DNA from: a virus
Taxonomy: Duplodnaviria; Heunggongvirae; Uroviricota; Caudoviricetes
Reading direction: 5' to 3' (one strand)
Virus record (IMG/VR): IMGVR_UViG_2698536418_000022
Length of the DNA stretch: 26,501 nt
Shown piece by piece: positions 11,138 to 25,328 of this stretch (position 1 is its first letter; each line of letters opens with the position of its first letter). Position numbers and translations under genes: made by a program. The notes beneath the pieces were generated by a model. That model searched no databases. It saw only the letters and a list, made by a program, of their open reading frames with translations, and had not been told where the DNA came from.

Positions 11138-12889
11138 ATGATTCAGGACGCTTTTGTGCGCCAGCGTGCGCGGCAACTTTACTGGCAGGGTTATCCGCCC
11201 GCAGAAATATCACGTCTGATGGGAATAAACCCGAACACGGTTTATGCGTGGAAAAAACGCGACCAGTGGGATGAAACGCCACCCGTGCAGCGTGTCACGC
11301 AGTCCATCGATGCGCGCCTCATCCAGCTTACTGAAAAACAGAATAAAACAGGCGGTGACTTTAAGGAAATAGACCTGCTGACCCGGCAGCTTAAAAAGCT
11401 GCATGATGGCCAGCCGGATGTGATGGCCGCAGGAAAGAAAGGCCGGGCGAAAAAACTCAAAAATCATTTCACGCCGGAACAGATTGCCGCACTGCGGGAA
11501 AAAATCATCAGCAGGCTGGAGTGGCATCAGCGGGGCTGGTTTGACTCCCTGACACTTTGCAAGGAAGCCGGGATACGTAACAGGATGATCCTGAAATCCC
11601 GACAGATTGGGGCGACCTGGTATTTTGCACAGGAAGCTCTGCTGATGGCGCTGCGTGACGATGTGGCGCAACCTTACCAGCGTAACCAGATTTTTTTGTC
11701 TGCGTCGCGTCGTCAGGCGTTCCAGTTCAAAAGCATTATTCAGAAGGCCGCGGCTGAAGTTGATGTGGAGCTGAAAGGGGGCGATAAAATCATCCTCTCC
11801 AACGGTGCAGAGCTGCATTTTCTCGGCACTTCTGCTGCGTCGGCACAGTCCTATACGGGCAATTTTTATTTTGATGAATTTTTCTGGGTCAGTCGCTTTG
11901 CTGAACTGCGCAAGGTGGCTGGCGCTATGGCAACCCTCAGCGGACTGCGGCGCACCTACTTCTCCACGCCATCCACCGAAACGCACGAGGCATACGCCTA
12001 CTGGAACGGCGACCGCTGGAACGAGAAAAAGGCCACGCATAAACGCCAGCGTTTTTCTGTGGACTGGAAAACGCTGCATAACGGGCTTATCTGCCCTGAC
12101 CGGACGTGGCGGCAAATTGTCACGCTGGAAGATGTGGTTAATCACGGCTGGAAACACACCGATATTGACGAAATTCGTGATGAAAACACCGAAGACGAGT
12201 TCCGCAATCTCTATATGTGTGAGTTTGTCCGCGAAGGGGAATCGGCATTTAACCTGAATATCCTGATTGGCTGCGGTGTTGACGGATACGACGACTGGAA
12301 AGACTGGAAACCTTTTGCTCCCCGCCCGATGGGGAATCGTCCGGTATGGATTGGGTATGACGCAAACGGCAGCAGTGGCAACGGCGACAGCGGCGCTGTG
12401 TCCGTGGTGGTTCCTCCGGCTGTTCCTGGTGGCCGTTTTCGAACGGTGGAGACGCGACGCGTTCAGGGGCTGGAGTTTGAAGAACAGGCCAGAGTCATTG
12501 AAGAGTTCACGTGTCGCTACAACGTGGAACACATCGGCATTGATGTGACGGGCGGGAACGGGGAGGCTGTTTATCAGATAGTGAAACGGTTTTTCCCTGC
12601 TGCTATTCCGTACACCTTCACGCTGTCATCAAAACGGTCGCTGGTACTGAAAATGCTGCAAATAATGCGTGCCGGGCGGTGGGAATACGATCGCGCCGAA
12701 CGCGAGCTGGTCGCGGCCTTTAACGCCGTGCGTAAGGTGAAAACACCGGGCGGTTTTATCACTTACGAAACGGACCGTGCGAGGGGGATCAGCCACGGCG
12801 ACCTTGCGTGGGCAACCATGCTTGCTGTCATTAACGAACCAATTGGCGGCGAAGGGGAAAACGAGCGTTTTACGGTTATGGAGTTCTGA
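11138..12889 (+). CDS. terminase ATPase (large) subunit (P2 gpP-like)
   Basis: 583 aa, ATG at 11138 with GGGGGAG RBS. Confidence 0.9.
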   Translation: MIQDAFVRQRARQLYWQGYPPAEISRLMGINPNTVYAWKKRDQWDETPPVQRVTQSIDARLIQLTEKQNKTGGDFKEIDLLTRQLKKLHDGQPDVMAAGKKGRAKKLKNHFTPEQIAALREKIISRLEWHQRGWFDSLTLCKEAGIRNRMILKSRQIGATWYFAQEALLMALRDDVAQPYQRNQIFLSASRRQAFQFKSIIQKAAAEVDVELKGGDKIILSNGAELHFLGTSAASAQSYTGNFYFDEFFWVSRFAELRKVAGAMATLSGLRRTYFSTPSTETHEAYAYWNGDRWNEKKATHKRQRFSVDWKTLHNGLICPDRTWRQIVTLEDVVNHGWKHTDIDEIRDENTEDEFRNLYMCEFVREGESAFNLNILIGCGVDGYDDWKDWKPFAPRPMGNRPVWIGYDANGSSGNGDSGAVSVVVPPAVPGGRFRTVETRRVQGLEFEEQARVIEEFTCRYNVEHIGIDVTGGNGEAVYQIVKRFFPAAIPYTFTLSSKRSLVLKMLQIMRAGRWEYDRAERELVAAFNAVRKVKTPGGFITYETDRARGISHGDLAWATMLAVINEPIGGEGENERFTVMEF

Positions 12890-13935
12890 TGAGCAGAAAA
12901 AATAAAAAAGTGCGCATGAGTTCACGCATTGATCTCGCTGATGCGCTCAGGAAAGAATCGTCGCTCAGTGCATTCACATTTGATGGTCCTTATCGCCTGA
13001 CCGGGCATGATTTGCTGGACAATATGTACTGTGCTGATAACGGGCGGTGGTATGAAACCCCGGTGGACTGGTACGGTCTGGCAAGAGCTGCCCGGCAAAC
13101 GTCCTGGCATCAGTCTGCGCTTTACTTTAAGCGCAATGTATTGCTCGGTTGCTATATTCCGCACCCGCTGCTTTCCCGGCAGGATTTCTCGGCGCTGGCG
13201 CTGGACTGGTTTGTGTTCGGTAACGCATTTCTTGAGCTTCGAAGCAATATGCTCGGCGAACCGCTTAAATTACGGCACGCCCTGGCGAAATACATGCGAC
13301 GCGGAAGCGATCTTGAATCATGGTGGTATGTTCAGGATGGCAAGGATGCGTTTCAGTTTCGCCCTGGCAAAGTGTGCCACCTGATGAATCCGGACATTAA
13401 CCAGGAAATTTACGGCATGCCGGAATATCTTGGCGCATTACTCTCGGCCAGCCTGTCTCATTCGGCGGACATGTTCAGAAAACTGTATTACGACAATGGA
13501 TCCCACGCCGGGTGCATCATCTATATCGGTGCAGCGCAGGTAAACCGCGAAAGCATGGACTCCCTGAAAGAAACGTTACAGGGTGCGCGTGGTGGTGGTG
13601 CGTTTAAAAACGTGCTCATCCATGCGCCCAACGGGGGCAAAGAGGGGGTGCAAATTTTGCCGTTCCAGCAGATCACCGCAAAAGATGAGTTCATGAATGT
13701 TAAGGCGGCATCCCGTGATGATGTGCTGGCTGCGCACCGTGTTCCACCGCAACTGATGGGGGCGATGCCGGGCGAAAAAAGTGCGTTTGGTGATGTGGAG
13801 AAGGCCGCGCGGGTTTACGCAATTAACGAGCTGATGCCCGTCATGGAGGCCATGAAGCACATCAATGACTGGCTTGGCGAAGAGGTGATCCGCTTTAACC
13901 CTTACGCACTGTTAGATACCCAGCCCACATCCTGA
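12889..13935 (+). CDS. portal protein (P2 gpQ-like)
   Basis: 348 aa, ATG overlapping the P stop by 1 nt (TGATG). Confidence 0.9.
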   Translation: MSRKNKKVRMSSRIDLADALRKESSLSAFTFDGPYRLTGHDLLDNMYCADNGRWYETPVDWYGLARAARQTSWHQSALYFKRNVLLGCYIPHPLLSRQDFSALALDWFVFGNAFLELRSNMLGEPLKLRHALAKYMRRGSDLESWWYVQDGKDAFQFRPGKVCHLMNPDINQEIYGMPEYLGALLSASLSHSADMFRKLYYDNGSHAGCIIYIGAAQVNRESMDSLKETLQGARGGGAFKNVLIHAPNGGKEGVQILPFQQITAKDEFMNVKAASRDDVLAAHRVPPQLMGAMPGEKSAFGDVEKAARVYAINELMPVMEAMKHINDWLGEEVIRFNPYALLDTQPTS

Positions 13936-13985: not shown

Positions 13986-14360
13986 GACTCTCCAGCTCCT
14001 GTATCAGTCAGATAATTTCACGACGCTTTCCTGCTTATTGCCATCATCGACGGTCAGATTCTTACGCAATCCCACTGCGCTGACTGCATGTTCTCGCCGC
14101 CTCAGTGCGATTTTGACGGCCTTACCTTTCACCCCATCAAACCAGAATCCCTCACGTATTTTTCACGCTCAGCGTGAGAAATACGGCCATTCTGTCGTGT
14201 CGCTGCGACATCGTTAAGGGAACGCTATTTACCCCCCTGAAACGCGGGCTGTTCCCCCGTCACCTGCGCGCAGAAAAAACGCGTTTTTTTGTGCACGTAC
14301 GGATCCTTGACGGATCCAGCCACCACGCGGGCCGGAAGTACAAAAAGTCGTTCAAAAAAA

Positions 14361-14422: not shown

Positions 14423-14692
14423 TCAATTGTTGCTGTTTATTAATCGCCAACCACGAACATATGCTTCATAGGCATCTCTGTGCCTTACAGTTCCAGCCTG
14501 GCTAAACGGAATGTTAGCTAAAACTAAATCATTCTGAGCCATAGCGCGTCCTTCAAGCGCATCTTTTATGCCTAGCTCAAAAGCACAGGCAGCGCATTTG
14601 TGCCGACCTTCTTGTCCTTGATATTCAGGGAGAGACAGAAATGTTGGATTATAACGATGAGGGTTCTTGCAAATACCTGTTTTAGCCCGCAC
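14423..14692 (-). CDS. hypothetical small protein (89 aa if GTG start at 14692; 39 aa if ATG at 14542)
   Basis: ORF followed by a strong terminator. Contains C/H-rich segment (CKNPH...HKCAAC). No confident family assignment from sequence alone. Confidence 0.35.
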   Translation of the reverse strand: MRAKTGICKNPHRYNPTFLSLPEYQGQEGRHKCAACAFELGIKDALEGRAMAQNDLVLANIPFSQAGTVRHRDAYEAYVRGWRLINSNN

Positions 14693-14715
14693 TTTATTTA
14701 CCTCATAGGAAAAAT

Positions 14716-14802
14716 ATGCGTGCCTTTACAGAGGTGCGTGTAAGCAATAAAATATACGACGCACATTTTGATTTACTTCGGAAGGCACGCATATCAGGTT
14801 AA
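14716..14802 (+). CDS. candidate 28-aa small ORF (MRAFTEVRVSNKIYDAHFDLLRKARISG); may instead be a small RNA
   Basis: ATG at 14716 with AGGA 6 nt upstream, followed 20 nt downstream by a strong plus-strand terminator. Internal inverted repeat GCGTGCCTT / AAGGCACGC. Confidence 0.3.
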   Translation: MRAFTEVRVSNKIYDAHFDLLRKARISG

Positions 14803-14821
14803 GTGAGTCCGACCGAGTTTT

Positions 14822-14856
14822 ACGCCCCAATAGTTGCTGCTATTGGGGCGTTTTGC
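14822..14856 (+). terminator. rho-independent terminator (plus strand)
   Basis: Stem CGCCCCAATAG / CTATTGGGGCG (11 bp) with a 6 nt loop, followed by TTTT. Confidence 0.7.
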
Positions 14857-15056: not shown

Positions 15057-15368
15057 TTACTCAGGAAATAACGCCCGGATATTCCCAGCCATCTGGCTGG
15101 TTATCTTAGCCACTGGTGCAGACTGTGCTTCAAACTTTTTTGAGCTGATTTGTGTCACAGGTAACATCTCATCATCAGCCCATGCGGCCAGTCGGTAAGC
15201 CTCTGCCGGATTCGTCTTCAGAAGTGCCAGCCCGGCCAGAAAAGCCACGCGTTGGCCGCTTTTGCGGGCTTCTGGTGTAAGGCTGTCCAGCCAGGCGCAT
15301 GCTTCTCCTTCGTTCTTGACGGCGGCGGGCTTCAGATAGAAACTTATCCGTCTGGTTGGTGTCGTCAT
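15057..15368 (-). CDS. parR: ParR-like centromere-binding adaptor (type II partition)
   Basis: Start placed at ATG 15366-15368, 4 nt after the parM stop with AAGGAG RBS. N-terminal RRISFYLKP...VAFLAGLALL and C-terminal IRALFP resemble recalled plasmid R1 ParR (RRTIAFKLNP...LTAGLALY...LRSLFP). Confidence 0.7.
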   Translation of the reverse strand: MTTPTRRISFYLKPAAVKNEGEACAWLDSLTPEARKSGQRVAFLAGLALLKTNPAEAYRLAAWADDEMLPVTQISSKKFEAQSAPVAKITSQMAGNIRALFPE

Positions 15369-15372
15369 TGGT

Positions 15373-16332
15373 TTACTCCTTGTCCATTGCGTACAGCCCA
15401 TTAACCAGAGCAAACTGTGGCACCCCGTCCGCGATGAAAGTCGCATTAACTCCGCAGGCTTCGCGGATAGCGGGTGCCACAATCTCCGCCCCGCCACCGA
15501 CAACCATCACCCGCCCGTAACCCGAAAAAACCGCCAGCGCGCGGATCACGCGTTGTTTCAGTGTTTCTTCCTTTTCACGAATAACCGCCATCAGGCTGGC
15601 GTAATGCGCGTCATTGTGGATGTGCTGGCGCAGCCAGGCTTCATTATGGCGATGTTCGATAATGGTATTGGCGATGTGGTGACTGGTGCGCATACCGTTA
15701 GTGGCCATCACCGACAGTACGGCATCGGCCATAAGAGAAACGCCTACGTGTGGATCGCAAAACACCTGGCTGATACCTGCCAGTTGCCCCTGAACCTTTG
15801 CCACATCCAGCGTGGTTCCGCCCAAATCCACAATCAGCAGGGATTCAAACGGACTCATGTCAGCCAGTGCTTTAAAGCCAGCCGGAATGGATTCAGGCAT
15901 AACCCGTACGTTACGGATAGTGAATGCTTCGCCGTTCTGGTACTCCACCGGGCGCATGACGTTCGCTTTTTTGCGGTTGATGTTGGCCATGTCCGGCTGT
16001 GCGTTTGTGTCGAAATATTCGCTCAGTGGCAGGGTAACAACCACATCCACTTCCTGTGGCGTGATGTCTGATTTGACCAGCGCGTGATGAATGGCAATGA
16101 CATTCACATCGCTGTACTGGTATTGCGTGTCGGTCGTCTGGACAAAGCGATCGCTGACCGGATCAAAACCATAGCGCACGCCATCAAGCATGTAGTTAGC
16201 AGGCTGCGAGCCACCGAACGGCGCAGACCATTCCGACTTGAAGCTGTTCGGGCTGATGGCGTTGCGGCGTTCGCCGTTCTCAGTCCATGCCAGCTTGATG
16301 TTGGTGGAGCCGTCGTCGATGTAAATTTTCAT
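15373..16332 (-). CDS. parM: ParM/StbA-like actin-family segregation ATPase
   Basis: 319 aa. IDDGSTNIKL, ISPNSFK, YSDVNVIAIHHAL, VMPESIPAG, SLLIVDLGGTTLD, FSGYGRVMVVGGGAE blocks are near-collinear with recalled plasmid R1 ParM. ATG at 16330-16332 with AAGGA RBS. Confidence 0.85.
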   Translation of the reverse strand: MKIYIDDGSTNIKLAWTENGERRNAISPNSFKSEWSAPFGGSQPANYMLDGVRYGFDPVSDRFVQTTDTQYQYSDVNVIAIHHALVKSDITPQEVDVVVTLPLSEYFDTNAQPDMANINRKKANVMRPVEYQNGEAFTIRNVRVMPESIPAGFKALADMSPFESLLIVDLGGTTLDVAKVQGQLAGISQVFCDPHVGVSLMADAVLSVMATNGMRTSHHIANTIIEHRHNEAWLRQHIHNDAHYASLMAVIREKEETLKQRVIRALAVFSGYGRVMVVGGGAEIVAPAIREACGVNATFIADGVPQFALVNGLYAMDKE

Positions 16333-16363
16333 GTCGGTTTTCCTTATGTTGATTAATTAATCG

Positions 16364-16476
16364 TTTACGGGATTCTGAAATCCCGTTTTTGCCTGTTTTG
16401 TGCGCGCCTCATATATCGCTGCGCGTTTTTTGCTCATTTACGGGATTCGTGAGTCCCGTTTCTGTCTGTTTTTTGT
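16364..16476. repeat. two ~39 bp direct repeats (74 bp apart), each with an ACGGGATT...AATCCCGT-type palindrome and a T-rich tail; candidate parC-like centromere/promoter
   Basis: Copy 1 at 16364-16402 is intergenic upstream of parM. Copy 2 at 16438-16476 overlaps the 3' end of gene A. About 80 percent identical. Confidence 0.5.
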
Positions 16477-19255
16477 TTCCACTGGTCAGGCCACCCCGCA
16501 GCAGGTCTGCTTTGCGGCTGGCGCGTTCAGTGGTTTCACTGATTCTCTGTGCGTGCTCTGCGTCGCGGATGGCGCGCAGCATGTCAGAAAGCACGGTAAC
16601 GGGTGTTTTCATGGTGTTCTGGTCCTGCTGAAGTGTGGATGCCAGGCGTGCGGCGGCTTCAGGGTCTGATGCCCCCAGCTGTGCCAGATAGCTGGCGACC
16701 GGGTTATGGCGGATCTCCGTGCTGCTTACGCCATGATTACGGCTCAGACGCTGCCAGAGCTGCGTGATTCGGCTGTCCGGGCGGGTATCCGGTTTGCGTA
16801 CAATTTCAAATCCCTGCGGTGCAATGATGCTGCCGTCAACGTACAGACTGCCGCCCCGTAACAGGTGCTGCATCTGTTGTTCACCGATATGCAGGCCGAG
16901 AGATTCAGCAGACTCCCGCCATTCTTTAGCGAGTAACTCGTGGTTATCAGGCAAAGGCCGCTGCTGTTTGCGGCTCTGTGTCCAGTTCTGCATTTCATCG
17001 CTGCTGTTTTTTGCCTGTTTGTCACGAAGCGAACGCATCAGCGCCCGGCGTTCGTGCCGTTTCAGTGAGCGCATCCATTCATTTACTTCAACGCCGTCAG
17101 GAAGCTGCGGCCACGGTGCTGGCCGTTCTTCCGGCTGTTCTGTCCCGTTGTTGCCTGTTTCCTGTACACGGGGACAGTTATTGCCACGAGTCCGAGTCCA
17201 AGGGGCGGCAGGGCCGCCCTGAAGGTCAAAACCATTTTCGCGGGCGCTGTCTTCCGCTTCCGGTTTGCGTCTTACCAGCTTCCAGTTATCCGGATGCGTG
17301 CATACGCGGGAAGACTCCCCAATGAGCGGCGACCAGATCCCGTAAATCTGTACGCTCTGTTCACCGTAATCGTTCAGCTCATCTGCGAGGTCGTAGGCGG
17401 TGCGAATCAGGTAGTCTTTGCGTGGAACAAGTACGCCACCCTGTTTCTCAATGTAGGTGGCAAAACATCCGGCATCAGCGGCAGCGAGTACCGCGTCCAT
17501 TGCGTCATCCTTCAGCCGTTGCGGGCCTTCCGGATTGCGTGCCATCTGGCTGGCAAGGCGGCGCAGTTCACGCCACACCTGACGGGAGGGGATGCCAAAG
17601 AACTGGAACTGACGGACCCGGTGAAGGCGCGCCCAGCCGATGGCGCGCTCCACGCTCTCGGCCATTGATTTACCTGTTTCGTGGTCAACGCGTGGCTTGC
17701 CCGTTTTCGGGTCGATGCCATCCACGGCGCGGCTGTCCAGGTTCTTTCCGATGTAGGTGGCGATGTAGCTGGTTGGCGTGCCTTTTGAGCCGTCGACGTA
17801 CTCCGCCTTAAAACGCGGAGTTATGTCATCGCCCAGCTCGTGGCGGTCTTCCTGAATGGCAATATCGCAGACGTGGGACACGATGGTTTCAATCTCGTCC
17901 GGATGTGCAAAGACCATCATATGCCAGTGCACAGTGCCGTCATGGTGAGGCTCCACCGTGCGGATGCCATACCAGCGCAGGCCGTCGCGGTTCAGTTTTT
18001 TGCGGACCGCCGCAAAAAACGTGTTAACCAGGTAATCGCTGGAGTCGCGCATAGTGGCCCCGTTCCATTTGGGATTCGGATGACCGTTCTCCGTTGTTGC
18101 GTGGTATTTTGACGGGCAGGTGACAGTCAGAAACACCGCTCTGTCGCCACGGGCTTCGGCCAGAAGTTCCAGCCCCTTCATGGTGGCCATCATTTCTGCC
18201 TTACGGTGAACCGGGTTACTTACTCCCGCGTAATACACCGTCTCGAGATCAATCGTGAACCCGTCTTCATTTTCCAGCATGAAACTTTTCAGGAAATCGC
18301 GTGTTTTCTCGCGCTGTGCGCGAAACTCGCTTAACGCGTCCTGGCTCAGATAGGGTGATGTTTTTCTGGAAACCAGACAGGCGGCGCGGAGTTGTTCTTC
18401 CCGCCACTCGCAACGTAACAGCCACAGTTTGCGTTTCCACCATTCCGCACAGGTCAGGCGAAGGATTGCGCCCGGCAGCAGCTCCGTGTCCGGTTCGTTC
18501 CTCCGGTCTTTGTCTGTTGTCAGTGCGTCATAATGTGGAGGCATGGCGTGCAGGTGTAACGCCATGCGGGCCAGCATCTGATACGCCTTCAGCGTTACAT
18601 CCATGGTCAGCTCACCATCGGTCGCGCCAAAGCCATCGCAGAGTTTTTCGAAGGTGCTGCTGAACATCGCCGCCGTCATGGTGGCCAGCGTCTGTATCTG
18701 GTGCTTGTTGAGCTGCGGCAGGTAAAGCAAATCATCCAGGCGTTCGCGTCCGGCAAGGGAGCGATAACCCGGTGTCAGCCAGCGGTGGTCGGTGCGGTCC
18801 AGGCGTTCGAATATTTTGCGCAGGGTTCCGCGCGCGTAGCGTTCAGCCTGCCAGCTCTTTTTGCCTTTCTGGCGATCGGCTTCCTGTTTTTTGCGCAGGA
18901 AAGAGAGGTGGCGGCTCAGAGGTTCACGCAGATAAACGGGAAGCACCTTCAGTGTGGCAAAAGCACGGGCCACCGGGTCTTGTTCTGTTGCCTGACGCTT
19001 GCTGATGATGCTTTGTGCCAGCTTTTCACGCTGTCCGGCTTCCTCAAGGGATGCCATGAGTTTTTTACCCACGGTGGATTGTGCGAAAAAGGCTTCCTCC
19101 TTCGCTTCCTGTTCTTCCAGAGCCTTTTTGTCTGCCTCAAGGTAGTAACGGATGGCGCGTTGCAGGTCGGTTTCAGTTTCCTGCCTGTGCTCCGTAAATC
19201 TGGCCGGATCAATGGCTGGCCGTGGTTCATTCCAGCTCCATGCAAACTCATTCAT
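16409..19255 (-). CDS. replication initiation endonuclease (P2 gpA-like rolling-circle initiator)
   Basis: Blocks TLTCPSRFHATT-like, PNPKWNGAT, HHDGTVHWHMMVF, AAADAGCFATYI, GGVLVPRK match recalled P2 gpA. Start placed at ATG 19253-19255 (track start is GTG at 19282). About 190 aa longer than P2 A at the C-terminus. Confidence 0.85.
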   Translation of the reverse strand: MNEFAWSWNEPRPAIDPARFTEHRQETETDLQRAIRYYLEADKKALEEQEAKEEAFFAQSTVGKKLMASLEEAGQREKLAQSIISKRQATEQDPVARAFATLKVLPVYLREPLSRHLSFLRKKQEADRQKGKKSWQAERYARGTLRKIFERLDRTDHRWLTPGYRSLAGRERLDDLLYLPQLNKHQIQTLATMTAAMFSSTFEKLCDGFGATDGELTMDVTLKAYQMLARMALHLHAMPPHYDALTTDKDRRNEPDTELLPGAILRLTCAEWWKRKLWLLRCEWREEQLRAACLVSRKTSPYLSQDALSEFRAQREKTRDFLKSFMLENEDGFTIDLETVYYAGVSNPVHRKAEMMATMKGLELLAEARGDRAVFLTVTCPSKYHATTENGHPNPKWNGATMRDSSDYLVNTFFAAVRKKLNRDGLRWYGIRTVEPHHDGTVHWHMMVFAHPDEIETIVSHVCDIAIQEDRHELGDDITPRFKAEYVDGSKGTPTSYIATYIGKNLDSRAVDGIDPKTGKPRVDHETGKSMAESVERAIGWARLHRVRQFQFFGIPSRQVWRELRRLASQMARNPEGPQRLKDDAMDAVLAAADAGCFATYIEKQGGVLVPRKDYLIRTAYDLADELNDYGEQSVQIYGIWSPLIGESSRVCTHPDNWKLVRRKPEAEDSARENGFDLQGGPAAPWTRTRGNNCPRVQETGNNGTEQPEERPAPWPQLPDGVEVNEWMRSLKRHERRALMRSLRDKQAKNSSDEMQNWTQSRKQQRPLPDNHELLAKEWRESAESLGLHIGEQQMQHLLRGGSLYVDGSIIAPQGFEIVRKPDTRPDSRITQLWQRLSRNHGVSSTEIRHNPVASYLAQLGASDPEAAARLASTLQQDQNTMKTPVTVLSDMLRAIRDAEHAQRISETTERASRKADLLRGGLTSGNKKQTETGLTNPVNEQKTRSDI

Positions 19256-19641
19256 GGCTGGTATCCCGTCACGCGCTGCCACTCCTGCGAGAAGAGGGCA
19301 GAAAGGCGGTTAAATTCAGCGGTGTATTCACTCAGCGAGGCACACCCGCCAGCAGTGCGATGCGCCAGCATTGCCGCAAATACGGAGGCCGGGGAGTCGT
19401 AATACGCCAGCAGTGATTCTCCGTGTGGTGTCAGGCAGTGCAACGCCAGCCCGTGTGGTGTGAAGTCCACGCGGTAGCAGTCGTCTACTGTGAAATAAAG
19501 GGTGTCTGCATTCTCCGGTTTTGTGGTGCGTGCTCTGTTGTCACGACCACGGATGTAGAGATCAAATAATCCCTGAAGAACGGGAGCCAGACGGGTGTCC
19601 TGTGTGCGCACCCATCTTGTGAAGTCATGAGCGTCAATCAT
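19252..19641 (-). CDS. hypothetical early-operon protein (129 aa)
   Basis: ATG at 19639-19641; stop overlaps the A start by 4 nt (translational coupling). Confidence 0.5.
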   Translation of the reverse strand: MIDAHDFTRWVRTQDTRLAPVLQGLFDLYIRGRDNRARTTKPENADTLYFTVDDCYRVDFTPHGLALHCLTPHGESLLAYYDSPASVFAAMLAHRTAGGCASLSEYTAEFNRLSALFSQEWQRVTGYQP

Positions 19642-22894: not shown

Positions 22895-22940
22895 GTGTAC
22901 TTATAAGTACACCTTGTGCGCAAGCTTAGTGTACTTATAG
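22895..22940. promoter_or_regulatory. immunity operator: perfect 18 bp palindrome GTGTACTTATAAGTACAC plus a third half-site copy GTGTACTTATAG
   Basis: Palindrome at 22895-22912 and direct repeat of the half-site at 22929-22940, in the 96 bp gap between divergent cox-like and C genes. Confidence 0.7.
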
Positions 22941-22951
22941 GAACACTGTCA

Positions 22952-23260
22952 ATGCTTATCGGTGAAAAAATTAGAGTGATTCGTGAATCAGAGGATTTAA
23001 CGCGCGAAGAATTTTGCGGCCTGATTGATGTGCCTATCGGCACTTTGCGTCGTTATGAAACGGGGCGGATTGAAAACATAGGGGGCGAAGTGCTTATCAA
23101 GATTGTTAATCACCCTCGCTTTTTTAAGTACATGAATTGGCTTATGACGGGAAAAACAAATGAGGCTGCTGGGCAGATCAGTCCGTCTCTCTCCCCTGAT
23201 GGGCCAAAAAGCACATCGCCTTCTCAAAAACCCCGCAAGACTGGCACACAGCCCGGCTAA
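22952..23260 (+). CDS. immunity repressor (P2 C-like)
   Basis: Start placed at ATG 22952 (MLIGEKIRVIRESEDLTREEF...). HTH plus FFKYMNWLMTGK...AAGQISPSL resembles recalled P2 C (FTKYTLWFMT...ESGQIAPAL). Confidence 0.8.
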   Translation: MLIGEKIRVIRESEDLTREEFCGLIDVPIGTLRRYETGRIENIGGEVLIKIVNHPRFFKYMNWLMTGKTNEAAGQISPSLSPDGPKSTSPSQKPRKTGTQPG

Positions 23261-23309
23261 TCATGGAGCGCTGGGGGCATGGTGGTCTTGTAACGCTGGG
23301 GTTTCACGA

Positions 23310-24287
23310 ATGAGCATAAAATCAATTCCGGGAGGGTATCTTCTTGACATGCGCCCTGAGGGGCGTAAAGGCAAACGCATTCGCAAAAAATTTAAAACGA
23401 AATCGGATGCAGTTTTATATGAGCGGTGGGTGCTGGCGCAACAGCATAACAATGAGTGGAAAGGAAACTCTATTGATCGCCGTCCTCTGTCAGTGCTTAT
23501 TGACTTGTGGTGGAAATACCACGGCCAGCTAATGAAGTCAGGGCATAACACGCGCCTTAAATTGCTGCGCTTGAGTGAGGCAATGGATGACCCGTGCGTG
23601 CATAAACTTAATACAACAATGCTCACCGAGCTACGTGTGTCCAGGATAGAGCAGGGGATACAGCCCAGCACCATAAATCGAGAGATTGGGGCGTTAAGCG
23701 CGATGTTTACCGCACTCATCTCATCCGGCCATTTTCTTAATGATAACCCCGTTCAAGGCCTTAAAGGAATGAAGGTTAACGAGCGTGAAATGGGATATCT
23801 GAGTAAGTCTGAATGTGTTCAGTTGCTGGATGCACTGGCTGAAAATCCCGATGAACGGCTGGCTGTCGAAATCCTTCTGTCGACCGGGGCGCGATGGGGC
23901 GAGGTAGCGGCACTGGAGCAGCGCCGTGTTCTTCATTGTCGAATCACTTTTTCAAAAACGAAGAACAGCAAAAACCGTACCGTTCCTATTTCTGAAAGCC
24001 TGTTTGAAAAGATCAAAAAACGGGGCGGGAAACTGGTGTTTCCGACGCTGGATTATCCATTGGTTCGCGATGTCATCAAAACGGTCGCACCTGATGTTCC
24101 CGACGGCCAGGCTGTTCATGCGCTGCGCCACACCTTCGCCAGTCATTTCATGATGAACGGCGGCAATATTCTGACGCTCCAGAAAATTCTGGGGCACGCA
24201 AAGATTCAGACAACGATGATTTATGCCCATCTTGCGCCGGATTACTTGCAGGATGCGGTGAGGTTTAATCCCTTGGGAGGAATGTAA
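23310..24287 (+). CDS. int: tyrosine integrase (P2 Int-like)
   Basis: Start placed at ATG 23310 (MSIKSIPGGYLLDMRPEGRKGKRIRKKF...), matching recalled P2 Int. Catalytic-region motifs LSTGARWGE, HALRHTFASHF, LGH...IYAH present. Confidence 0.9.
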   Translation: MSIKSIPGGYLLDMRPEGRKGKRIRKKFKTKSDAVLYERWVLAQQHNNEWKGNSIDRRPLSVLIDLWWKYHGQLMKSGHNTRLKLLRLSEAMDDPCVHKLNTTMLTELRVSRIEQGIQPSTINREIGALSAMFTALISSGHFLNDNPVQGLKGMKVNEREMGYLSKSECVQLLDALAENPDERLAVEILLSTGARWGEVAALEQRRVLHCRITFSKTKNSKNRTVPISESLFEKIKKRGGKLVFPTLDYPLVRDVIKTVAPDVPDGQAVHALRHTFASHFMMNGGNILTLQKILGHAKIQTTMIYAHLAPDYLQDAVRFNPLGGM

Positions 24288-24289
24288 CT

Positions 24290-24790
24290 ATGGAAATAAA
24301 AAAACCTACAAAAAAAGAGTTATATGACTATTTACTATCGAAATATATAGAAGATAAATGCAAAGAAGAAGCTGATGAAATCAATAAGAAGTCGATGAGT
24401 CGTGTCAAAAAACATAAAGAGCGGCTGATGGAGATTACGCCAGAAATCTTCTTCCGTTTCTTGTCTGAGAAGGGGGTCTCCAGTGTCTGCCCTTCATGTG
24501 GATCGTCGCGATTATCTATTCCTGAAAGTATGGATCTTTGTTGGGATAAAAATAAGAAACCAGAAAATTTTAACAATCTACCCTTGGAGGAGCAGAGTGA
24601 GTTAATTAAAGAGAACATAAAGCATTATGTATCTTATACTTTTTTTGGTGATGTTAAGAGCATACCTGATATGCGCAAAACTTATTACACGCTGCATTGC
24701 CTGAATTGTGGTTACCTGAGCCTTTACCGTACGTCTGCGGTGCTGAAGTGGTTGGAGAAAGACAAAGCGCAGGATGGTGAAAATGGGTAA
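24290..24790 (+). CDS. hypothetical protein with a four-cysteine zinc-ribbon-like signature (166 aa), AT-rich cargo
   Basis: ATG at 24290, 2 nt after the int stop, with GGGAGG RBS. CPSCG and CLNCG pairs; lysine/glutamate-rich; AT-rich compared with the phage backbone by eye. Confidence 0.6.
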   Translation: MEIKKPTKKELYDYLLSKYIEDKCKEEADEINKKSMSRVKKHKERLMEITPEIFFRFLSEKGVSSVCPSCGSSRLSIPESMDLCWDKNKKPENFNNLPLEEQSELIKENIKHYVSYTFFGDVKSIPDMRKTYYTLHCLNCGYLSLYRTSAVLKWLEKDKAQDGENG

Positions 24791-24890
24791 TGCAGCAAGA
24801 AACCTTTTCGGTAATTCAGCAGGTAGTATGTCGCATTCTGAGCGTGATGTGCTTTATCATGGCGGCGATGGCGGCAGTAGTGGAGGCGGA

Positions 24891-25328
24891 ATGTCAGATA
24901 AACTTGAAAGGCGAATTGAGCGACTCGAAGGTGATTTATCGCTAACAAGAAACGACCTTGCGACGCTTACTGAACGCACTACAAACCTCTCAACCAAAGC
25001 TGATGTTGGTGAGGTGAAAGGTGAGCTCAAAGCAGACATTGCTCATCTGAAAGGTGATCTTAAATGCGATATTGCGAATCTAAAAGGTGAGCTTAAATCT
25101 GATACAGCTCACCTGAAAGAGCAGCTCAAATCAGACATTAACAGCCTGAAGGGTGAGCTTACCGAAGCGATGGATAAACGCTTTGACAAGATTATGGATG
25201 AGATGAATCGGCGGTTTGACAAGGTTGATGATAATACGAAGTGGCGTTGGAGTGGCATTATTGTGCCAGTATGCACAACCATTTTCACGGCGGCGGTTGC
25301 TGTATTTGTTGCTAAATTTGTTGGCTGA
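24891..25328 (+). CDS. tail-anchored coiled-coil membrane protein with tandem 11-residue repeats (145 aa; longer if an upstream start is used)
   Basis: ATG at 24891 has the best RBS (GGAGG); alternative in-frame ATGs at 24774, 24783, 24828. Five 11-aa repeats (LKGELKADIAH-type) and a C-terminal hydrophobic anchor IIVPVCTTIFTAAVAVFVAKFVG. Confidence 0.6.
   Translation: MSDKLERRIERLEGDLSLTRNDLATLTERTTNLSTKADVGEVKGELKADIAHLKGDLKCDIANLKGELKSDTAHLKEQLKSDINSLKGELTEAMDKRFDKIMDEMNRRFDKVDDNTKWRWSGIIVPVCTTIFTAAVAVFVAKFVG
25017..25160 (+). repeat. four and a half tandem copies of a 33 bp repeat inside the coiled-coil gene
   Basis: Copies beginning AAAGGTGAGCT... at 25017, 25050, 25083, 25116 and a partial copy at 25149; each encodes one 11-aa repeat in frame. 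Confidence 0.7.

Follow-up and report, generated by a model that had tools for sequence, protein, structure and literature searches.

A ParM/ParR pair held behind replication gene A of P2-like prophages, a candidate segregation module for excised phage DNA

Why should an integrase-bearing phage of the P2 family carry a partition operon of plasmid type? The question is raised by IMG/VR virus record IMGVR_UViG_2698536418_000022 (Caudoviricetes), a stretch of 26,501 nucleotides that we analysed at its full length and refer to as the window. On its minus strand lie parM (15373–16332), which encodes an actin-like segregation ATPase of 319 residues, and parR (15057–15368), which encodes a ParR/StbB-family adaptor of 103 residues. 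An initial sequence-only reading of this DNA had placed the pair between replication gene A and the cos/portal end of an integrase-bearing P2-like prophage, in the slot where P2 has old and tin, and comparison with the P2 annotation, where the interval runs A-orf91-tin-old-cos, bears this out. Our analyses indicate that the pair is almost certainly a genuine, selected ParM/ParR of the R1 family. We further propose, with a probability of roughly 0.5, that it forms a working type II (ParMRC-type) segregation module, which stands at the far end of an early block A-parM-parR and would act on extrachromosomal circles.

The identity of ParM was examined by profile, structure and pairwise comparisons. 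The protein matches the Pfam families StbA_N (PF06406, E = 9.7e-81) and ParM C-terminal domain (PF21523, E = 3e-68), and residues 1–316 match the crystal structures of R1 ParM in the PDB (e.g. 1mwk) with E = 7.7e-92. Aligned directly, the two proteins are collinear, share 46% identity and are offset by two one-residue gaps in all. The motifs DDGST (phosphate 1), DLGGTT (phosphate 2), GGGAE (adenosine) and MPESIPAG, which contains the catalytic glutamate, are intact and identical to those of R1 ParM, and the nucleotide-binding motifs are invariant throughout the clade of phage ParM proteins described below. The ParM-like actin ATPase noticed in the sequence-only reading is thus a full-length member of the ParM/StbA family. 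Selection was measured on a sample of 80 IMG/VR loci plus relatives, in which the 55 distinct parM alleles give a ratio of non-synonymous to synonymous substitution rates (dN/dS) of 0.066. The protein search also returned truncated forms of ParM, of 188–261 residues; since these have hundreds of member sequences each and stand on long contigs, some clonal E. coli lineages seem to carry decayed parM copies.

The kinship of ParR to R1 ParR is visible only by profile and direct pairwise comparison. ParR matches PF10784 (Plasmid_stab_B, E = 9.8e-24) and PHROG 2515, 'partition protein', and its N-terminal 61 residues are 33% identical to R1 ParR/StbB, which places the adaptor where the sequence-only reading had put it. 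The R1 ParR reference used here is a protein of 117 residues that is matched at 100% beside parM in the plasmid records listed, and at 99% or more in 1047 records. A tblastn search of 72,556 plasmids with the phage ParR returned prophage copies only and no R1 ParR, and the protein has no sequence match in the PDB. The AlphaFold model of the monomer is of low confidence (mean predicted local distance difference test score, 58) and shows helices at residues 20–29 and 32–52 after a disordered N-terminal segment. The model would allow a strand-helix-helix domain followed by a disordered linker and a C-terminal helix, but is no proof of them.

The way in which ParR varies is more informative. Among 75 loci there are 34 alleles, and the allele in the window is the commonest among these IMG/VR-derived loci. 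Residues 1–14 (MTTPTRRISFYLKP) are constant in all alleles but one, and the C-terminus ends in a conserved tail, N-I-[RQ]-x-[LF]-F-P. The dN/dS values follow this division: 0.13 for the N-terminal, ribbon-helix-helix (RHH) domain, 0.46 for the linker and 0.045 for the C-terminal 12 codons. Like parM, parR thus evolves under purifying selection. Judging from family membership, the N-terminus would hold the DNA-contacting strand, as in RHH-type ParR. At the other end, the tail aligns in a multiple alignment with the C-terminal end of R1 ParR, KKNAMKLIN; in R1 this end is the ParM-binding peptide. Because both ends are conserved while the linker evolves fast, the pattern would suit a functional adaptor that reads DNA with one end, binds the motor with the other and is flexible in between. 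The two genes also lie very close together: the parM stop codon (15373–15375) and the parR ATG (15366–15368) are separated by 4 nucleotides and an AAGGAG lies within the 3' end of parM, so close or coupled translation of the two is plausible.

Where might such an adaptor bind? The sequence-only reading had pointed to repeats immediately upstream of the pair, and two 42-nucleotide direct repeats, 73 bp apart, are indeed found there. The first candidate ParR-binding site (parC/operator), at 16361–16402 on the minus strand, lies between gene A and parM and contains the palindrome ACGGGAT-N6-ATCCCGT. The second, at 16434–16475 on the same strand, carries the same palindrome and lies inside the last codons of gene A, the stop codon of which occupies 16409–16411. 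A scan of the window finds ACGGGA-N8-TCCCGT, the form contained in each repeat, without mismatch at just these two sites. Between the first repeat and the start of parM, the leader (16333–16360, minus strand) comprises a ribosome-binding site and a conserved ATTAATCAA motif. Across 80 related loci the palindrome arms GGGAT/ATCC are kept while the loop varies, and TTAATTAATCAACATAAGGAAAA is near-invariant in the parM leader.

Elements of this region extend to more distant loci. The ATTAATCAA leader motif is also present in Hafnia and Plesiomonas, and the core AAACGGGA is common to a Serratia locus, with related forms in Enterobacter and Plesiomonas; its recurrence agrees with the near-invariant N-terminal segment of ParR, RR(I/V)SFYL. 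In Plesiomonas, two 26-nucleotide direct repeats of different sequence are spaced 72 bp apart, the first within the 3' end of gene A, and in Serratia and Enterobacter an inverted repeat of 14–20 nucleotides surrounds a small GC palindrome. Upstream of parM in one Serratia prophage (locus L017, 5899–5914) the central palindrome reads TGCCGCCAGCGGCA, and in another (L111) its counterpart is TGCCACCAGTGGCA. As this two-sided change preserves the palindrome, the symmetry itself seems to be under constraint. The palindromes show no covariation with ParR allele group, as is expected from the invariable DNA-reading segment at the ParR N-terminus. The arrangement is unlike that of R1 parC, which, read from a plasmid with an identical ParR, consists of 2 x 5 A-rich 11-bp iterons with an ACCC core that flank the promoter. 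It is therefore reasonable to regard the two palindrome-bearing phage repeats as a candidate centromere or operator of an architecture unlike the ten iterons of R1 parC. The 7-mer AAAACRG is enriched over the whole window and has three copies in the repeat region; a role for it as a sub-iteron is suggestive only.

To see how common the locus is, we consider its occurrence. The 1.6-kb segment is present in 1304 of 5426 complete E. coli genomes (24%), where 1450 of its places are chromosomal and 2 are on plasmids. Over the query region, O157:H7 strain FRIK944 and several further genomes match it at 100%, and 14 phage records have it too, among them P88, Citrobacter phage phiSM and further members of Xuanwuvirus/Peduoviridae. 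RefSeq names its products 'plasmid segregation protein ParM' and 'plasmid partitioning/stability family protein'. Moreover, Rousset et al. 2022 (PMC9122126), who studied the gpA-gpQ hotspot and the antiviral cargo there, report a putative partitioning system, StbA and Plasmid_stab_B, in about one in four P2-like phages of E. coli and suggest that it may allow maintenance as a plasmid. Contrary to the sequence-only reading, the pair is thus not unexpected in a P2-like phage: it is frequent in E. coli, present in P88, named in RefSeq, assigned to PHROG families and recorded in PMC9122126, so that both the observation and the interpretation first favoured for it have already been published, though only as a remark. 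The recurrence of its junctions in over 1300 complete genomes, and likewise in 14 phage records, excludes an assembly artefact or misjoin of a plasmid-derived segment, and together with a phage-specific ParM clade that spans five genera it leaves the idea of an artefact or a recent plasmid-derived insertion with a negligible chance of being right.

We then asked with which neighbours ParM proteins of this type are found. Below the P88-like group, which shares 91–98% identity, a search of 5.8 billion proteins gave as nearest relatives the ParM proteins of Hafnia, Plesiomonas, Serratia and Enterobacter, at 53–62% identity. These divergent phage copies came from the protein search and contig look-ups; a contig scan gave only close relatives and plasmid-type ParM proteins. 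All five of the clade contexts examined have the order gene A, (0–2 small genes), parM, parR, variable cargo, (ogr), portal and terminase, while none of five contexts from outside the clade (ParM identity 46–52%) has gene A or portal; the latter comprise a Rep3 plasmid, an integrated plasmid, a conjugative element and two less clear cases, plasmid-like or undetermined. In a neighbour-joining tree, which carries no bootstrap support, the phage-borne proteins form one clade apart from R1 ParM, and this clade spans the same locus in five genera. The backbones of these phages are as distant from the phage of the window as P2 is: portal proteins share 30–46%, large terminases 35–43% and gene A products 30–56% identity, against 53–62% for ParM. 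Because the backbones are so divergent while the ParM clade keeps its locus, the comparison argues that the association of ParM with P2-like phages is old or has been repeatedly re-established, and is not a recent plasmid capture. What is added here, as an incremental advance, is the phage-specific clade, the pattern of selection and the site with two palindromes. A broader idea, which we put forward only tentatively, is that the P2 family has long kept a ParMR lineage of its own for a viral task, namely distributing rolling-circle monomers or carrying the excised genome through division. If true, a common small temperate coliphage would possess a cytoskeletal component, with a minimal two-palindrome centromere that overlaps a replication gene.

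The conserved position also bears on whether the pair is exchangeable cargo. The sequence-only reading had placed it in an accessory slot, where P2 has old and tin. Unlike those two genes, which are variable cargo, parM and parR constitute a fixed module at the hotspot boundary. What differs from phage to phage is the interval from parR to cos, which holds, for example, HicAB, a KAP NTPase or a peptidase together with an AAA ATPase in relatives, and an 89-residue moron here. Neither ParM nor ParR matches PADLOC, and with their fixed position they do not classify as anti-phage defence cargo of the P2 hotspot.

What would the module do, and when? Gene A (16409–19282, minus strand; Phage_GPA, E = 1.5e-129) encodes the rolling-circle replication endonuclease. 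Its product is 946–957 residues long, versus 761 in P2, owing to a C-terminal extension of about 200 residues without P2 counterpart (16409–17000, minus strand), the last codons of which overlap the second repeat; gene A lengths differ among parMR-bearing lineages (785–912 residues). By alignment of the A proteins, the annotated P2 nick of the origin (ori) maps near 17200, about 0.8 kb from the repeats. The minus-strand order is gene A, a gap of 76 nucleotides, parM, a gap of 4 nucleotides and parR. In every lineage examined, no gene-strand terminator was detected between gene A, or the preceding early gene, and parM, and for this reason read-through into parMR from the early replication operon appears likely. 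No sigma-70 site was found upstream of parM; the same scan misses the validated R1 parC promoter, so this result carries no weight.

From these features the following mechanism can be proposed. As no terminator on their strand sets the two genes apart from the preceding gene A, ParM and ParR would probably be made with the early operon on, after infection or excision, during A-driven rolling-circle replication. Dimers of ParR would bind the two palindrome-bearing repeats upstream of parM through their N-terminal domain, and the conserved C-terminal tail would capture the ends of ParM-ATP filaments. Filaments growing between two ParR-DNA complexes could then push two phage DNA circles apart. 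The benefit would be that both daughter cells inherit the extrachromosomal phage genome during a transient plasmid-like phase, before re-integration or lysis.

For an episomal state the evidence is weak. A single record, pZ1323PEC0009-2, deposited as a plasmid, is a circle of 34,461 bp that contains phage genes only and has int joined to the other prophage end (a joined attP). A sister strain has the identical phage in integrated form, beside pdxB. Against that integrated copy the circle shows three single-base deletions, one cox substitution and a CT deletion in (CT)5 of the C repressor gene (differing positions, about 28145 in the circle, L004, and 14150–14151 in the integrated copy, L107); these may denote a derepressed mutant persisting as a circle or sequencing error, and we do not use them as evidence. 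Other candidate episomes were set aside. CP025923 (via NC_049344) is a linear chromosomal excerpt with host yecA at one end and an IS100 insertion, CP025874 (31,194 bp) was dropped by analogy with CP025923 only, and the 'plasmid' of Shigella boydii is what is left of a prophage, linear and riddled with IS1. A Plesiomonas shigelloides contig of 32,167 bp, WEKF01000002.1, holds a whole P2-like phage with parMR and the integrase near one end, and could be an extrachromosomal or separately assembled circle.

Several points weigh against a segregation role. P2-type development reaches lysis within one cell cycle, and a phase in which partition matters is for that reason hypothetical. Circular forms are hardly ever recorded, 1450 of the 1452 places in E. 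coli being on the chromosome. The locus has only two palindromic sites, versus ten 11-bp iterons in R1, and these could be an operator only; their hairpins also score as terminators when the opposite strand is read, which is a real alternative. We found no experimental study of the module in the literature. The closest competitor to the segregation module would keep the parts and change the purpose: made early, ParMR might move or spread the replicating monomeric circles, which are the obligate packaging substrate of P2, and thereby improve replication or packaging, not inheritance. In favour of this proposal, the pair closes the early replication operon without an intervening gene-strand terminator, and the candidate centromere lies about 0.8 kb from the mapped ori; with almost every copy integrated, the module must come into play upon induction or infection. 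By analogy, the actin-like protein and adaptor of prophage CGP3 are induced early and are both needed for efficient phage replication (PMC4446434). However, ParMRC spindles are known for low-copy pairs, not for a hundred or so circles, and about three quarters of E. coli P2-like phages, P2 and 186 included, do without the module (PMC9122126). We regard an organiser of lytic replication as rather unlikely, at about half the weight given to segregation.

Further departures from the segregation module are less probable still. The phage might be a true phage-plasmid, that is, a low-copy plasmid prophage maintained over the long term and partitioned by ParMR, as the sequence-only reading mainly proposed and as was suggested in print (PMC9122126). 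A complete plasmid-type partition pair, the 34,461-bp circle with joined attP and the 32-kb, phage-sized contig of the Plesiomonas copy speak for it, although spontaneous induction can also give a circular contig and the other apparent episomes are prophage excerpts or linear contigs. The integrase is always present. Gene A is part of the repressed early operon in P2, and replication under lysogenic repression is therefore not expected. With a single phage-sized circular record, and because all but 2 of the 1452 places are chromosomal, a stable plasmid prophage is not the normal state, and we consider this lifestyle improbable. We hold just as little of a function outside segregation, in which the pair would serve exclusion or incompatibility against related centromeres, or ParR would be a regulator and ParM a passenger, with the repeats as terminators or RNA hairpins. 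The pair does adjoin a hotspot of known antiviral cargo (PMC9122126), the opposite-strand terminator scores of the hairpins agree with such a function, and ParR has many alleles and a fast-evolving linker; yet the pair stays fixed while the adjacent cargo varies, PADLOC recognises neither protein, and ParM is strongly purified by selection with its ATPase motifs intact. Moreover, the ParR N-terminus and the palindrome cores do not diversify, the opposite of what escape from incompatibility predicts.

According to the annotation of the identical chromosomal region, the window carries a P2-family prophage integrated beside btuC in the E. coli chromosome. It is of P88-like type (Xuanwuvirus, Peduoviridae), the parMR segment sharing 94–98% nucleotide identity with P88 and relatives, and it has the P2-type gene set and order, with gpA, portal Q, terminase P, scaffold O, capsid N, int and the C repressor. 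Domain matches locate the integrase and a helix-turn-helix repressor at about 22916–24287. Past parR follow about 360 non-coding nucleotides, the 89-residue open reading frame (ORF), the cos region and then the portal gene on the opposite strand (12889–13935, plus strand). The P2 cos sequence is unmatched in the window at up to 3 mismatches; GGTGACGGGGGAACAGCCC, at approximately 14250–14268 on the minus strand, resembles the 19-nucleotide cohesive end of P2 and is probably the cos core of this phage.

The 89-residue ORF (14423–14692, minus strand) belongs to PHROG 3941, of unknown function, contains a CxxC motif and has no match in Pfam or PADLOC. With a promoter-like site of its own (14928→14901) and a terminator (14415→14395), it makes up a self-contained moron within the interval from parR to cos, where the real variability lies. 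Opposite its leader, at 14714–14855 on the plus strand, a promoter-like site (14725–14753) is followed by a perfect 12-bp hairpin (14822–14851) and a T-run, and a perfect 13-nucleotide inverted repeat (14714–14726 / 14782–14794) frames the element. Its fold z-score is -3.07 and Rfam gives only sub-threshold, terminator-like matches; the element could encode a small transcript of about 95 nucleotides. The interval from the integrase to btuC contains two ORFs, of 166 and 184 residues (24290–25328, plus strand), which may be prophage-end cargo or part of the integration site. The 184-residue product is a coiled-coil protein (DUF1640 in RefSeq) with weak matches to segments of ZorA and LmuB.

How does the module compare with known systems? 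The gene pair itself is ordinary and already recorded: the system described for P88/Xuanwuvirus by Rousset et al. 2022 (PMC9122126) is the same thing, and the copy in the window is no different in kind. About one complete E. coli genome in four has this actin-like segregation module within a P2-like prophage. With ParMRC of R1/NR1 (parA/stb) the phage locus shares the order of centromere region, parM and parR and the repeats upstream of parM. It differs in that the phage ParR is shorter (103 versus 117 residues) and lacks a middle segment, that ParM falls in a separate phage clade and that the replicon is an integrating P2-family phage, not a plasmid. Should the compact two-palindrome site act in partition, it would be a useful minimal centromere for comparison with R1 parC. 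Among 50,697 phage records, the only non-P88-like ones that encode a ParM relative are two records of phage D6 (47% identity). D6 is a P1-like 91-kb plasmid prophage, and its StbA-type ParM is no closer to the ParM of the window than plasmid ParM proteins are.

An experimentally shown precedent for a role in inheritance, which we draw on by analogy, is srpMRC of SXT/R391, which stabilises these elements by reducing their loss, with SrpR binding direct and inverted repeats upstream of srpM (Carraro et al. 2015, PMC4489591). Here too an actin-type partition system is found in an integrating and excising element with a rolling-circle (HUH-type) enzyme (PMC4489591). SrpM and SrpR, however, are only distant from R1 ParM and ParR, SrpR having no ParR homology, whereas the phage pair clearly belongs to the R1 family, and SXT/R391 is a conjugative element, not a virus. 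If parMR prevents the loss of excised or unintegrated phage DNA, it would blur the line between prophage, integrative and conjugative element and plasmid, as srpMRC did for integrative and conjugative elements, and prophage stability and spread would be affected in pathogens such as O157:H7. The other comparison is with AlpC/AlpA of the Corynebacterium glutamicum prophage CGP3, likewise an actin-like protein with a co-transcribed adaptor that is induced early in an integrated prophage. There, AlpA binds upstream of its own operon, and the two proteins connect circular phage DNA with filaments (Donovan et al. 2015, PMC4446434). AlpC is of another actin-like family, the host is Gram-positive and the adaptor gene comes first; should parMR serve to organise lytic replication, Gram-negative hosts would have in it a simple equivalent of CGP3 AlpAC.

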